Assembly (NCBI GenBank): GCA_017621525.1
Contig: JAGASX010000011.1
Span: 47,865-111,864 of the forward strand
Origin: Clostridia bacterium
GTDB taxonomy: Bacteria; Bacillota; Clostridia; Christensenellales; UBA1242
DNA length: 64,000 nucleotides
Direction: 5' to 3'
Positions 2,458-56,041 of this stretch are shown here, one piece after another. The stretch's first letter is position 1. Each line of letters opens with the position of its first letter. The notes beneath the pieces were generated by a model. That model searched no databases and was not told where the DNA came from. It saw nothing but the letters and a program-made list of their open reading frames with translations. Made by a program: the position numbers and the translations under genes.

Positions 2458-3552
2458 TTATGATTTTTTATACAATTGCACCCCAGCAATCACAAGCGTA
2501 CCAACAAAAGCAAATGAAAATATCATCGCCCACACCCAATTTGAGGTTGAAGAATATTTTGTAGGCGGTTCGCTTGATTGGTTTTCATTATTTTCTTCAT
2601 CTATTATAATATCTTCGGTTTCTGGCGATTTTTCATCGTCAACTATAATTTCATCATCGCCATTCGAAACGCTGTTATATAGCGCCGTTTCAACAACATC
2701 TGCAAGGTATGGAATTGTATTAAAAACATACTCTTTTTCAATCATATACGTGCCCATTTCAAAAAGCAAATTTGTTTCTTTAAGGCTTTGATTATAGTGT
2801 CCACCGCCACAATAAACATCTAAAAAAAGCCAAGGATACATGCTGGCACCCAGCGCAAAAACCTTTTGTGCAAATTGATAGTTTTCTTCAAAATTAGGAT
2901 TTGATTTGCCAACAACAATTCTCACTTTGCTTAATGGTAGGCCGTTTTGGTTTGTATAATAATAACTTTTGCTTATTCCGTCGCGATGAATATCAAAAAG
3001 AGCGTCTGGGGAATAGTTTTCTTTCAGTGATTTTGCTGTAACCGAAGAGCGACTATACGCAGAACTATTATGAGGAATATGCAAAGTTTCATCAAGAACA
3101 GAAAATATACCGCGAGAGTTAAATTCTTCTTGCAACTCTCTTGCCACGTCATGAATTCCACCAGCGCCATAAATGCTATCGTAGCCATCGCTTGGGGTAT
3201 AACTTTCATCATTATGTGTCATATACATACAAATACTTTTTCGCTCTATTCCTCTTTTTTGCGGGAAAAATTGCCTATTGATTTTAGGCGGGTTTATATC
3301 TCTTTTCTTTCTTGCATAACCGCAGTTCCCCTCAACTTTATATATTTCATATTCATCAAAATTAGAGGTGATAAAAACATCGCCCTCTTCTATTTCGCTT
3401 TTGCGAGCCACTTCCTCACCTTGTTGATTGTAAACCACATACTCGGCTATATCGCCATCTTCGGCAAAAGTGATTTTTTCACAAAATGGCATTGCACACG
3501 GCAAAATGGCAAGCAACAAAAATAACAAAATAAGACATGAACAATTTTTCAT
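2458..3552 (-). CDS. spoIIP: Stage II sporulation protein P (SpoIIP-family amidase/peptidase)
   Basis: SpoIIP-like core (YMTHNDESYTPSDGY, GIHDVARELQEEF, DIHRDG). Has an N-terminal hydrophobic segment plus an acidic linker and a C-terminal TM helix. Confidence 0.8.
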   Translation of the reverse strand: MKNCSCLILLFLLLAILPCAMPFCEKITFAEDGDIAEYVVYNQQGEEVARKSEIEEGDVFITSNFDEYEIYKVEGNCGYARKKRDINPPKINRQFFPQKRGIERKSICMYMTHNDESYTPSDGYDSIYGAGGIHDVARELQEEFNSRGIFSVLDETLHIPHNSSAYSRSSVTAKSLKENYSPDALFDIHRDGISKSYYYTNQNGLPLSKVRIVVGKSNPNFEENYQFAQKVFALGASMYPWLFLDVYCGGGHYNQSLKETNLLFEMGTYMIEKEYVFNTIPYLADVVETALYNSVSNGDDEIIVDDEKSPETEDIIIDEENNENQSSEPPTKYSSTSNWVWAMIFSFAFVGTLVIAGVQLYKKS

Positions 3553-4386: not shown

Positions 4387-4423
4387 TTTGATGCTTTATT
4401 TATTAAGTTAACAAAATGTATTA

Positions 4424-4530
4424 TGGTGCGGGCGGTGGGAGCCCTTACCCTAAAAATCTTACGATTTTCAGGGAACCCGCGAACCCAAAGGTTCGACACC
4501 CTCCGCGTCCAATATAACTAAAATGTATTA
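4424..4530 (-). repeat. tRNA-Leu-linked structured module ending in a duplicate tRNA 3' end (..CTCCCACCGCCCGCACCA)
   Basis: 29-nt perfect direct repeat 4413-4441 = 4520-4548. Internal hairpins at 4448-4473 (GTAA loop) and 4480-4495. Lies between the tRNA and its terminator. Confidence 0.6.
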
Positions 4531-4612
4531 TGGTGCGGGCGGTGGGAGTCGAACCCACACGGTTTCCCACTTGCCCCTTAAACAAGCGCGTCTGCCATTC
4601 CGCCACGCCCGC
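4531..4612 (-). tRNA. tRNA-Leu, anticodon read as AAG (type II tRNA, short variable arm, encoded CCA)
   Basis: Cloverleaf by hand: GCGGGCG / D arm GCGG-AATGGCAGAC-GCG / CTTGT-TTAAGGG-GCAAG / GTGGG-TTCGACT-CCCAC / CGCCCGC-A-CCA. Aligns to the tRNA-Leu at 55646. Confidence 0.85.
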
Positions 4613-35278: not shown

Positions 35279-35303
35279 AAAGCAGGCATAAAGCCTGCTT
35301 TTA
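35279..35303. terminator. Bidirectional terminator between the XRE gene and sigF
   Basis: AGCAGGC-ATAAA-GCCTGCT stem flanked by A and T runs. Confidence 0.6.
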
Positions 35304-36026
35304 TGATGAAAGTTTGTTTCTTAAATTTTCTAAAATCTTGTTTTCAAGGCGGGAAACCTGCACCTGCGAAATGTTAAGTTCTTTGGCTATTTCGCTTTGG
35401 GTTTTATCAAAATAATAGCGTAGCATGATGATTTTTTTATCCCTTTCGTCAAGGTTTTTTATTAATTGAGAAAGGGCGAGTTTTTCAAGCATTTTACCGC
35501 CTAAATCTTCTTCGCTTTCTATTCTATCAACAAGGCATAGCGAATCTGCGCCGTCTTCAATTGGTGTATATATTGAAATTGGCATTTTTGCCGAGTCCAT
35601 AGCAAGCACAATTTCTTGTTCTTCCAACTGAAAATGTTGGGCAATTTCTTCAATTGTTGGGCTTTTTTGATTTGTTTTAACAAACGCCTCTATAAACTTG
35701 TTAATCTGCAAATTTAGCGTTTTTAGGGCTCGGGAAACTTTTATAGAACCGTCATCCCGCATAAATCTTTTTACTTCGCCAATAACCATAGGCACCACAT
35801 AGGTGGAAAATTTTACTTCAAAAGAGGGGTCAAAATTTTTTATCGCCTTCAAAAAGCCCATACAGCCTATTTGGTAAAGGTCATCATACTCAACACCCTT
35901 GTTTTTAAAGCGTTTTATAACGCTTTTTATTAGTGGCGAATTTTCTTCAAGTAGCACCGATTTTGCACTTTGATTACCCTGTTGAGCCAGATTTACAAGT
36001 TGCAAAATTTGGGCAGAATCAATCAT
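35301..36026 (-). CDS. sigF: Sporulation sigma factor F
   Basis: Sigma-70 regions 2 to 4. Third gene of the spoIIAA-spoIIAB-sigF operon. Confidence 0.93.
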   Translation of the reverse strand: MIDSAQILQLVNLAQQGNQSAKSVLLEENSPLIKSVIKRFKNKGVEYDDLYQIGCMGFLKAIKNFDPSFEVKFSTYVVPMVIGEVKRFMRDDGSIKVSRALKTLNLQINKFIEAFVKTNQKSPTIEEIAQHFQLEEQEIVLAMDSAKMPISIYTPIEDGADSLCLVDRIESEEDLGGKMLEKLALSQLIKNLDERDKKIIMLRYYFDKTQSEIAKELNISQVQVSRLENKILENLRNKLSS

Positions 36027-36468
36027 TCCCCACCTGCTTTAATGCCCTTGCAATCTGCTTGTACATAACCACTTTAAGCCCCATGCCGTCATTTGGCATA
36101 ACTTCCACCTTATCCATAAAACTTTCCATAACTGCAAAGCCCATTCCACTTCTCTCTTCGCTTGGTTTTGTGGTGTAAAAAGGCTCCATTGCTTTGGAAA
36201 TATCTTTTATGCCAATTCCGCTGTCCTTAACGATTATTTTTATATTATCTCCCTCTAATTCGCAACGCAAATTTACCATGCCATTACCCTTTGGGTATGC
36301 GTGCACCACGCAATTTGTAACCGCCTCTGATACCGCAGTTTTTATATCGTTAAGTTCATCTACCGACGGGTTGAGTTGTAGGCAAAAGCCGGCAACGCAA
36401 ACGCGAGCAAAACCCTCGTTGATTGACAACGCTTTAAAGTTTACTTCCATAAAATTCGATTTATTCAT
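36019..36468 (-). CDS. spoIIAB: Anti-sigma F factor / serine kinase SpoIIAB
   Basis: HATPase_c motifs (AVSEAVTNCVVHAY, DSGIGI, GMGF). Operon context. Confidence 0.93.
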   Translation of the reverse strand: MNKSNFMEVNFKALSINEGFARVCVAGFCLQLNPSVDELNDIKTAVSEAVTNCVVHAYPKGNGMVNLRCELEGDNIKIIVKDSGIGIKDISKAMEPFYTTKPSEERSGMGFAVMESFMDKVEVMPNDGMGLKVVMYKQIARALKQVGND

Positions 36469-36478
36469 AACTGCTCCT

Positions 36479-36787
36479 TTAAACTATTTTGGGCATTATA
36501 TTGTACAGCCCAGTCATTTTAAAAATCCTTTCCGCCTGCTTTGATGGATTGCTTATGAAAATTGGTATATTTTTTGTGTGCATCTTTTTATATCTGCCTA
36601 TTAAAACACCTATCCCCGTGCTGTCCATAAATTCAAGTTCTGAAAGGTCTATGATAATCTGTGAAAAACTTCCGCCCGCAAATATATCGTCAAGGGTTAT
36701 ACGAGTGTGTTCGGCCGAATATTCGTCAAGTTCTCCACACAAAAGGACATAAAGTGTATTGTTGTAAATTTTACTTTTAATCTGCAT
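36479..36787 (-). CDS. spoIIAA: Anti-sigma F factor antagonist SpoIIAA (STAS domain)
   Basis: STAS fold with the phosphorylatable Ser motif (FMDSTGIGVLIG). Operon context. Confidence 0.9.
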   Translation of the reverse strand: MQIKSKIYNNTLYVLLCGELDEYSAEHTRITLDDIFAGGSFSQIIIDLSELEFMDSTGIGVLIGRYKKMHTKNIPIFISNPSKQAERIFKMTGLYNIMPKIV

Positions 36788-38605: not shown

Positions 38606-38639
38606 ATATTGTGAACTAAAACTTTGAATAGCCCACGTT

Positions 38640-38707
38640 TGGTGCCCTAAGGTGGGCTTAACCCTCTCTTTCAAGAGATTTAAGGTTGCTTCCACCAAGG
38701 CCACGTT
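38640..38707 (-). repeat. tRNA-Phe-linked 68-nt module ending in a duplicate tRNA-Phe 3' end (..CCACCTTAGGGCACCA)
   Basis: 23-nt perfect direct repeat 38633-38655 = 38701-38723 (period 68). Internal hairpin TCTC-TTGAAA-GAGA. Confidence 0.6.
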
Positions 38708-55285: not shown

Positions 55286-55360
55286 GCGGGAGTGGCTCAG
55301 TGGTAGAGCGTTACCTTGCCAAGGTAAATGTCGCGGGTTCGAATCCCGTCTTCCGCTCCA
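55286..55360 (+). tRNA. tRNA-Gly (GCC), CCA encoded
   Basis: GCGGGAG acceptor, anticodon arm TTACC-TTGCCAA-GGTAA. Confidence 0.92.
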
Positions 55361-55364
55361 CAAT

Positions 55365-55439
55365 GGTACCATCGCCAAGCGGTAAGGCAAAGGTCTGCAA
55401 AACCTTTATTCCCCGGTTCAAATCCGGGTGGTACCTCCA
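55365..55439 (+). tRNA. tRNA-Cys (GCA), CCA encoded
   Basis: GGTACCA acceptor, anticodon loop CTGCAAA, discriminator T. Confidence 0.92.
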
Positions 55440-55645
55440 TTGAATTCAGCGACCGAGGGAGGTCGCTATTATAATTTATGGGGGTATTTTTATTAAAGGT
55501 GCGGAAAGAGTGGCGGAATATCAATCCTTTGCACCAATGTGTGCGGTGAAAGGATTGATGCATACGCTTTGCGTATTTAGTGCAGACGGCGTCTGCCATT
55601 GTTAAGTACAACGCTTGTACAAAATTTACAACTTAATATCTCTCA

Positions 55646-55731
<86 letters not shown>

Positions 55732-55736
55732 ATAAA

Positions 55737-55755
55737 ACAGGGTAACCTGTTTTTT
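55737..55755 (+). terminator. Small intrinsic terminator right after tRNA-Leu
   Basis: CAGG-GTAA-CCTG followed by T7. Confidence 0.5.
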
Positions 55756-55786
55756 TATTACAAGCAATTAAGGTTTTTGTTGAATT

Positions 55787-55865
55787 ATTGGTGGGAGGCG
55801 AACGTGTTCGACGGGGTCCCAAAAAATCGTAAGATTTTTGGGGTAAGGCTTCCACCACCAGCACC
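55787..55865 (+). repeat. tRNA-Leu-linked structured module ending in ..CTTCCACCACCAGCACCA (homolog of 4424-4530)
   Basis: 15-nt repeat of the tRNA 3' end (55717-55731 = 55851-55865). Hairpins CGAAC-GT-GTTCG and CCCAAAAAATC-GTAA-GATTTTTGGGG. Has its own terminator downstream. Confidence 0.6.
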
Positions 55866-55873
55866 AAATAAGT

Positions 55874-55903
55874 AAGATCCAAACTGAAAAGTGAGGATCT
55901 TTT
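55874..55903 (+). terminator. Intrinsic terminator after the module
   Basis: AGATCC..GGATCT stem followed by T5. Confidence 0.55.
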
Positions 55904-55915
55904 TATATCTTTTAG

Positions 55916-55977
55916 ATGTGGAGGTAGATTTTAAGGCACGGCTCAACCCCACCACAAACAAGGCATCTTGTTTTTTT
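55916..55977 (+). repeat. Decayed third copy of the Leu-linked module with its own terminator
   Basis: TGTGGAGG..TAGATTTTAAGG..GGCTCAACCCCACCACA resembles ..AAGATTTTTAGGGTAAGGGCTCCCACC.. of the intact modules. ACAAG-GCAT-CTTGT followed by T7 at 55957-55977. Confidence 0.4.
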
Positions 55978-56041
55978 TCGTTAAAAATTAAAATATTGAC
56001 AAATATATTATAGAATGATACAATGAGTATGGAGGCTTAAA

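Follow-up and report, generated by a model that had tools for sequence, protein, structure and literature searches.

The DNA analysed here is a stretch of 64,000 nucleotides (nt) from a Clostridia bacterium (GenBank assembly GCA_017621525.1, contig JAGASX010000011.1, positions 47,865 to 111,864), which we call the window. It holds two tRNA-Leu genes about 51 kb apart, and with each of them, on the same strand and on the 3' side, stands a short unit that ends in a copy of the 3' end of that tRNA. We call the unit behind tRNA-Leu(AAG) unit A and the one behind tRNA-Leu(UAA) unit B; a decayed unit C follows unit B, a divergent unit follows tRNA-Phe, and a module of mirror-image build precedes tRNA-Leu(UAA). 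Units A and B share a hairpin, cassette H, set into the T loop of the truncated tRNA copy. Loci and contigs related to the window and compared with it carry L numbers. The features are as follows.

4531-4612, minus strand: tRNA-Leu(AAG), called by ARAGORN and Rfam
4490-4517, minus strand: unit A, decayed tRNA 3' end in inverted orientation, running from the T loop to CCA and then TAA (inverted repeat with 4528-4555)
4442-4489, minus strand: unit A, T-arm 5' half (GGGTTCG), then cassette H and TAAGGG (pattern and profile match, alignment)
4413-4441, minus strand: unit A, sense tRNA 3' end plus 11 nt of downstream flank (perfect 29-nt direct repeat of 4520-4548)
38633-38707, minus strand: divergent unit after tRNA-Phe (k-mer repeat search, sequence, fold)
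55510-55600, plus strand: mirror-image 5' module upstream of tRNA-Leu(UAA) (repeats, alignment with L049/L050 and L052)
55647-55732, plus strand: tRNA-Leu(UAA), whose ends are copied in the flanking units (ARAGORN; Rfam tRNA, 62.8 bits)
55734-55756, plus strand: terminator t1, directly 3' of tRNA-Leu(UAA) (terminator scan)
55789-55803, plus strand: unit B, T loop and T-stem 3' strand copied in inverted (antisense) orientation, TGGTGGGAGGCGAAC (inverted repeat with 55709-55723)
55804-55812, plus strand: unit B, sense T-arm 5' half, GTGTTCGAC (sequence, alignment with other units, fold)
55813-55848, plus strand: unit B, cassette H, GGGGTCCCAAAAAATC GTAA GATTTTTGGGG TAAGG, at T-loop position 57/59 (pattern match; profile E = 3e-13)
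55849-55866, plus strand: unit B, sense T-stem 3' strand, acceptor 3' strand and ACCA, CTTCCACCACCAGCACCA (direct repeats, exact 15-mer)
55874-55905, plus strand: terminator t2, after unit B (inverted repeat 55874-55885/55890-55901, then TTTTTAT)
55918-55978, plus strand: unit C, a decayed older unit with a decayed copy of t1 (direct repeats, alignment, positional orthologue in L048)

Anatomy of the units

The initial annotation of this DNA took the modules at 4.4 kb and 55.8 kb for homologues rather than the result of a random duplication, and the 26-nt core AAAATCGTAAGATTTTTNGGGTAAGG bears this out: it occurs exactly twice in 64 kb, at 4443-4468 on the minus strand and 55823-55848 on the plus strand, with none expected in 100 shuffles, and a profile of the core adds no copy elsewhere in the window. 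The unit reported at 55787-55865 is likewise there, although the repeat that closes it had been placed one position too far to the left, where 14 of 15 bases match; the exact 15-nt repeat, CCACCACCAGCACCA, joins 55718-55732 to 55852-55866. Unit B is also bracketed by terminators as first described, one found by scan at 55734-55756 and one consisting of the inverted repeat at 55874-55901 and a T run. At 4.4 kb the direct repeat is 29 nt long and continues 11 nt past the CCA.

All 3' units align in one order. An inverted T arm, sometimes an inverted copy of the whole 3' end, is followed by the sense 5' half of the T arm (GGGTTCG), by 1-5 variable bases and by H, behind which come the last two T-loop bases, the 3' strand of the T stem, the 3' strand of the acceptor stem, ACCA and often a piece of locus-specific flank 7-29 nt long. 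The two T-loop bases behind H match the local tRNA, being CT for Leu and TT for Glu. The inverted arm and H are always found together in these units; the arm is 93% complementary over 15 nt in unit B (55789-55803 against 55709-55723) and 75% over 28 nt in unit A (4490-4517 against 4528-4555, the whole 3' end plus TAA), and in the related locus L008 the 5' part of the unit, GGGGAATCGAACCCC, is the exact reverse complement of the T arm of its tRNA-Glu(UUC). This direct-inverted-direct order recurs at 4.4, 38.6 and 55.8 kb of the window and in L005 and L008. Its outer junction lies just after CCA or at a terminator, and its inner junction carries H, which is common to the loci and not obviously local.

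That the 5' strand of the units changes in step with the tRNA end had been put forward as what a real helix would show, with the caveat that each unit might simply derive from its own tRNA. The pairing is real, but the caveat explains it fully: the seemingly compensatory strand is the T arm or 3' end copied in inverted orientation, not independent evidence of a helix, and its fit to each tRNA is therefore no evidence that a helix was selected. In the predicted fold of unit B, GTGTTCGAC pairs with the last part of the inverted copy as a short hairpin. A minihelix mimic whose CCA is free was considered and rejected, because in the long-armed unit A and in the tRNA-Phe unit the inverted arm pairs with the CCA as well.

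A direct repeat of a tRNA 3' segment beside the intact gene, present here as exact repeats of 15-29 nt, is the classic signature of integration (PMC9897764; Williams 2002 as cited there), and imported integrative elements are the usual source of partial tRNA genes (PMC9897764; bioRxiv 10.1101/2020.12.28.424599). The units might accordingly be remnants of the attachment (att) sites of integrase-type elements (a prophage, an integrative and conjugative element or something like a cis-mobilizable element) that entered the T loop repeatedly and lost their interior, with the inverted arm and H as a conserved arm next to attR; successive integrations are described as pushing older partial tRNAs outwards (bioRxiv 10.1101/2020.12.28.424599), and the distal units here are the older ones. 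However, the repeats continue past the tRNA end into flank specific to the locus and into its terminators (11 nt at 4.4 kb, 7 nt at tRNA-Phe and at least 7-16 nt in L010 and L005). An imported element would not carry these, and their presence points to local duplication instead. The T arm is moreover interrupted at the supposed core rather than contiguous, and the same hairpin sits in the mirror-image 5' copies. At none of the more than 20 related loci read does an integrase or element DNA lie between the repeats, whose spacers measure 24-216 nt; the intact integrative element that the initial annotation thought might stand between equivalent repeats, reducing the units to deletion scars, was seen at none of them. 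The cassette is also absent from phage collections: blastn of both units against 50,697 phage records gave no match, a pattern scan of IMG/VR gave 0, and a looser 18-mer scan of viral contigs gave 10 matches, all of them chance and outside the CCC...GGG TAAGG context. We consider an origin as att remnants very unlikely.

Behind unit B, the decayed third unit that had been proposed is confirmed as unit C. Its end and terminator (55948-55977) are homologous to the end and terminator of the tRNA (55717-55756), t1 and 55956-55977 form a direct repeat of 82% identity, and remnants of the inverted arm (GTGGAGG), of H (TAGATTTTAAGG, with about 33 nt deleted) and of the 3' end can be recognised. The supposed restriction to tRNA-Leu, by contrast, has to be given up, as the family also stands at tRNA-Glu(UUC) in L008, another metagenome-assembled genome, and has a divergent member behind tRNA-Phe in the window itself. 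The latter lies in a Pro-Met-Asp-Phe-[unit]-Thr-Tyr cluster with no terminator ahead of it; it consists of a decayed inverted 3' end, a hairpin TCTCT TGAA AGAGA, GGGTTAAG, and a sense 3' end with 7 nt of flank, and is predicted to fold as one long hairpin.

The mirror image is seen upstream of tRNA-Leu(UAA). The module at 55510-55600 contains, in order, tRNA nt 7-16 in sense orientation, then at the D-loop position a hairpin other than H (55520-55559, 11 bp, with GCACCA within its loop), the 3' part of the D arm in sense orientation and an inverted D-arm copy of 12 nt (12/12 matches). Its counterparts are the H-bearing 5' units of L049 and L050, which belong to the species of L005 and carry two (L049) or one (L050) such units in tandem upstream of tRNA-Leu(UAA). 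Each comprises tRNA nt 1-13, the stem of H with a larger loop, set in the D loop, then nt 14-43, in which the anticodon hairpin is lengthened by four inverted bases, and at the end a copy of the upstream flank. L052 has a 5' partial copy without H, so that partial duplication can exist without the cassette. Both the position of the hairpin in the T loop and its occurrence in the D loop of 5' copies go beyond what was first described. Around this locus the window has the tRNA order Gly(GCC)-Cys(GCA)-Leu(UAA) (55286-55732), with a terminator and about 200 nt between Cys and Leu.

Cassette H

Cassette H, about 40 nt in size (36-44 nt), reads GGGTTCCCTGAAAATC-loop-GATTTTTAGGG-TAAGG (or TGATGG) in 3' units and takes the form GGGYTCCCTGAAAAT-loop-ATTTTTAGGGT-RA.. 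across 3' and 5' units. It separates G57 from C/T59 in the T loop of 3' units and G13 from A14 in the D loop of 5' units. The loop varies (GTAA, ATAA, GCCA, GTCA, GTTA, GTGA; 5-7 nt in 5' units), and the 11-bp stem is 96.4% paired among 15 distinct copies, with three pairs changed on both sides and a covariation score that 0/500 shuffles reach. All of the roughly 36 copies seen sit inside tRNA-derived sequence, only two of them in the 64 kb, and every copy across about 300 kb of related loci is tRNA-linked.

Such a hairpin could be a non-autonomous mobile element of miniature size, akin to REP or PATE repeats and mobilised by an enzyme whose gene lies elsewhere in the genome; it would insert into the T and D loops of single-stranded tRNA-gene DNA folded as a cloverleaf and survive only in redundant copies or together with a duplication. 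The same cassette at an identical loop position, whether the copy derives from Leu(AAG), Leu(UAA) or Glu(UUC), the presence of H in the D loop of 5' copies that lack T-arm homology, and a stem kept by compensatory changes around a free loop, as for a hairpin recognised by its shape, are all in keeping with this, as are the partial copy of L052 that lacks H, the tandem of a diverged cassette and a normal one in L036 and L038, and variants that are specific to a genome and do not follow the relationships of ClpX. Yet inspection of the open reading frame map revealed no evident integrase or transposase, including RAYT or IS200/IS605 TnpA, in the 64-kb window, and no candidate enzyme is encoded beside any unit. 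Families such as REP and MITE are dispersed over many intergenic regions, whereas H is confined to tRNA sequence; at 36-44 nt it would be smaller than most described mobile repeats, and the inverted T-arm copy in every 3' unit finds no explanation in its movement. We hold a mobile cassette to be unlikely.

The diverged cassette, H' (GGGGCTCCCCGCAAATT GTGA GATTTGTGGGG CATTTTTT), directly precedes the normal H at 5691-5730 of L036 and 5579-5618 of L038 (minus strand) and differs by two compensatory pair changes and a T run. Because the T run makes H' resemble a terminator, it hints that H may derive from terminator hairpins. H itself does not qualify as an intrinsic terminator: TAAGG or TGATGG follows it in place of a T run, and the terminator scan flags only the degenerate terminal copy of L035. 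A derivation from the anticodon arm of tRNA-Leu was rejected, since the matches of 8/9 and 12/14 are, by our own estimate, within chance expectation.

The units could alternatively be functional structured RNAs released from tRNA transcripts, acting as tRNA-end mimics, decoys or antisense regulators. Each would form a long hairpin or three-way junction in which the 3' arm copies the T stem and acceptor 3' strand with ACCA, the 5' arm is antisense to the T arm, and H serves as a protein-binding or stabilising handle. Predicted folds are moderately more stable than shuffles, for the most part at z = -3 to -5.3 (fold energy z: unit A -3.1, unit B -1.9, relatives -5.3 and -3.5, tRNA-Phe unit -2.9), and the covariation of the H stem would be expected of such an RNA. 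From the window to L029, unit A keeps 91.6% identity, compared with about 64% for synonymous sites (third codon positions, 61-66%), and five of its six substitutions fall in loops or junctions, the sole stem change being G.U to A-U; the contrast with other intergenic DNA is nevertheless modest, because in the same comparison the neighbouring promoter region is about 87% and the terminator region about 76% identical. The tRNA-Phe unit and unit A must be transcribed, because no terminator precedes either, and the 5' units form part of the tRNA leader, with a promoter-like site upstream of them at 2425-2397 of L049. The presence of the same variant at both loci of a genome can be counted on this side too.

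Most 3' units, however, stand directly behind an intrinsic terminator, and no promoter-like site is seen between 55756 and 55787, in the 3' units or in the array of L035, so that the independent tRNA-mimicking RNA suggested by the initial annotation is not upheld. Several close relatives lack units altogether, copy number varies between strains, and distal copies decay, up to the loss of the hairpin in unit C; the GTAA loop and TAAGG, invariant in one set, are replaced elsewhere by ATAA, GCCA, GTCA, GTTA and TGATGG. Inverted duplication by itself makes the arms pair, and template switching can compensate hairpins without selection (PMC8794818). In Rfam searches of the window and related arrays at gathering and permissive thresholds, with RF00005, tmRNA and mascRNA among the tRNA and tRNA-like families compared, only true tRNAs match; the highest-scoring model to overlap a unit, permuted tmRNA, reaches 16.8-19.2 bits, short of its gathering score of 47, and ARAGORN calls no gene in the units. 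A functional RNA appears improbable to us.

Several other identities were set aside. CRISPR-like, bridge-RNA-like and omega-RNA-like guides were rejected because associated genes are absent, a terminator stands upstream and the two 'guides' are mutually complementary. Inspection of the sequence gave no fit to a retron, a type III toxin-antitoxin system, group II intron domain V or the hammerhead and other small ribozymes, nor to an integron attC, a dif/Xer site or a CodY box.

Arrays and gaps among related genomes

Copies beyond this genome, the existence of which had been an open question of the initial annotation, were found in relatives by pattern scans and by synteny. A pattern scan of public genome contigs returned eight loci, four of them chance (listed as L001-L004 and L007), and a scan of metagenomes returned one true match and one chance match; arrays of the TGATGG type escaped these scans, because the patterns required a GNRA loop and TAAGG, and were found later by synteny. 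Orthologous tRNA-Leu(AAG) loci were located through ClpX homologues and Gly-Cys-Leu(UAA) loci through Band 7 homologues. By ClpX, units at tRNA-Leu(AAG) occur in two clades, one of the window and L029 (97% identical) and one of L005 and L035 (93.5% identical), and none stand at this gene in L030 (ClpX 89% identical to that of the window), L031/L033 or L042/43. The Leu(UAA) locus of L054 has neither 5' nor 3' units. The two H copies of the window both carry GTAA and TAAGG, the two hairpins of the L029 genome, 50 kb apart, are identical (CCCTAAAAATCATAAGATTTTTAGGG), and the split between TAAGG and TGATGG recurs in both unit-bearing clades.

The species of L035-L041 has a tandem array of 131-nt repeats behind tRNA-Leu(AAG), in each of which (L035-L040) local flank and terminator, inverted arm, T-arm half, H and 3' end follow one another. 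Contigs with identical ClpX carry two, three or at least four units, the last always truncated, in counts that come from short-read metagenome assemblies, which can miscount 131-nt repeats. In the sister genome, where L029 and L048 lie on one contig, an orthologue of unit A is accompanied by a single unit at the Leu(UAA) locus, one fewer than in the window. This better-preserved unit, with its hairpin intact, lies between the counterparts of the two terminators that flank unit C, the homologue of t2 directly following tRNA-Leu(UAA), and it carries the idiosyncratic GGCGAACGTGTTCGACGGGG of unit B. A unit in the position of C with the mark of B makes units B and C paralogues. Distal units are decayed relative to those next to the tRNA. 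Unit 2 of L005 is nearer to the tRNA sequence than unit 2 of L006 or L010, a resemblance that points to gene conversion and partial re-homogenisation.

A structural variant of the Leu(UAA) locus is seen in L014 (1-290), a 1.1-kb contig of the same species as the window. There a Leu(CAA)-like 3' part takes the place of the tRNA-Leu(UAA) end, together with a terminator, a hairpin module of about 140 nt that is AT-rich and roughly 70 nt more, after which the sequence rejoins that of the window at the terminator, at 55737. The module, a terminator with a long, imperfect AT-rich hairpin (GTACTTTTATTTCTTATTTTTTC...GAAATAAGAAAGAAAAAAG), is found at 60-198 of L014, 7091-7225 of L005 and about 1950-1820 (minus strand) of L049, always directly after a ...GCACCA end but at different tRNA-Leu-linked positions, and is 76% identical between species. 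On the att reading, which we doubt strongly, this module in L014, L005 and L049 could be the other arm of an element. Logan short-read contigs of the window's species (L012, L013, L017 and L018) have their ends exactly within units A and B/C: short-read assemblies break at the repeated tRNA ends.

The window as a whole has a GC content of 36.6%, and its sporulation genes (spoIIAA-spoIIAB-sigF-like, 35301-36787; SpoIIP, 2458-3552, by Pfam) indicate a spore-forming Firmicute.

Proposed duplication of tRNA gene ends and known systems

We tentatively favour, at somewhat less than an even chance, the reading that the units arose at the DNA level as direct-inverted-direct partial duplications of the ends of tRNA genes, which recombination then amplified, with a cassette that is copied between loci; a dedicated RNA product need not be invoked on this reading. 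Everything but H is derived locally (tRNA end, flank, terminator and inverted arm), which favours local duplication over imported integrative elements. Fold-back or template-switch replication errors at the hairpin arms of the tRNA would first have produced a direct-inverted-direct partial duplication, extending on the 3' side from the T arm to CCA with a few to tens of bases of local flank or terminator and on the 5' side over promoter-proximal flank and tRNA nt 1-43. Replication errors have been described to yield inverted triplications whose junctions lie at short inverted repeats (PMC4689423), and hairpins can be both created and maintained by template switching, apparent compensatory changes included (PMC8794818). 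Unequal recombination and gene conversion between tRNA ends would then expand, shrink, delete and partly re-homogenise the arrays, the pattern seen among the relatives, and copies far from the tRNA would escape homogenisation and decay. H, finally, lies in the interrupted loop of the pseudo-copy in several species and in copies of different tRNAs; an independent origin at each locus being impossible, it has been copied between loci, most economically by conversion or template switching through the near-universal GGTTCG...TCC motif of the T arm.

Several observations weigh against this account. A purely spontaneous process does not explain why the same cassette was left at the same loop nucleotide of at least three tRNAs, and conversion through the T-arm motif cannot account for H in the D loop of 5' copies, which have no T-arm homology. 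That the same variant stands at both loci of a genome and differs between sister genomes fits inter-locus conversion, for which the units have 60-80 nt in common, and a trans-acting agent equally. The identity of unit A between the window and L029 suggests constraint, and the array dynamics lean on the assembly-based copy numbers with the uncertainty given above.

If the process is ordinary, the units offer a clean natural case of small-scale direct-inverted-direct duplication and of array dynamics at tRNA genes. They also carry a practical warning, since they break short-read assemblies, imitate att sites and create false covariation. There is, in our estimation, a small but genuine chance that H is a mobile hairpin homing to the D and T loops of bacterial tRNA sequences or that the units are processed RNAs titrating a reader of tRNA 3' ends. 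In the first case truncated copies would carry H because insertion into a live gene is lethal, and H would represent structure-targeting transposition or a counterpart of the archaeal loop introns; if a dedicated enzyme does move it, H would be unusually small for such an element and would recognise tRNA loops as targets by their structure. Were the units processed RNAs, they would be a new class of mimics of Leu, Glu and Phe tRNA ends in a common, uncultured lineage of Clostridia.

Among known systems, the partial tRNA genes made by integrases resemble the units in having a tRNA 3' copy on the 3' side of the intact gene and serial copies with the oldest farthest away (Williams 2002 as cited in PMC9897764; tycheposon arrays in bioRxiv 10.1101/2020.12.28.424599). 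They differ in that the units here come without element DNA and with local flank, have an inverted T arm and a hairpin in the T loop, and occur in a mirror-image 5' form.

The tandem inversion duplications (TID) of Salmonella are comparable to the direct-inverted-direct units. Inverted triplications, as in the model of origin-dependent inverted-repeat amplification (ODIRA; PMC4689423), share with them the order direct-inverted-direct, junctions at a hairpin-capable T arm or terminator, and an unstable copy number, and the model expects later asymmetric deletions, as in the units. In contrast, known inverted triplications span kilobases and are transient under selection, whereas the units measure 25-130 nt, persist across species and share a foreign-looking cassette at the inner junction of every locus. 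H resembles the repeats of the REP/REPIN, PATE and MITE kinds in its size of about 40 nt, in combining a conserved hairpin stem with a loop that is free to vary, and in having several copies in a genome, with differences from strain to strain; unlike them, it is strictly embedded in tRNA sequence, has two copies in 64 kb and has no associated transposase identified.

The non-canonical, apparently mobile tRNA introns of Thermoproteales archaea (PMC4090602, PMC4033280) are likewise short hairpin insertions in D and T loops that are shared among tRNAs. Those introns, however, lie in full-length, expressed genes and are removed by the splicing endonuclease, whereas H is bacterial and occurs only in truncated, non-functional copies, in which a bulge-helix-bulge motif was neither looked for nor noticed. 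The E. coli glyW-cysT-leuZ operon has the same tRNA order, Gly-GCC, Cys-GCA and Leu-UAA, as the locus in the window. The 3' external transcribed spacer of that operon is a sponge of small RNAs and thereby an example of a tRNA trailer that gives rise to a functional RNA, but there is no likeness in sequence or structure, and in the window a terminator stands between the tRNA and unit B. Rfam and the literature searched hold no description of such units, which, as hairpin-bearing partial tRNA copies, are best placed as a new form within known kinds, the tRNA-gene fragments and palindromic repeats.

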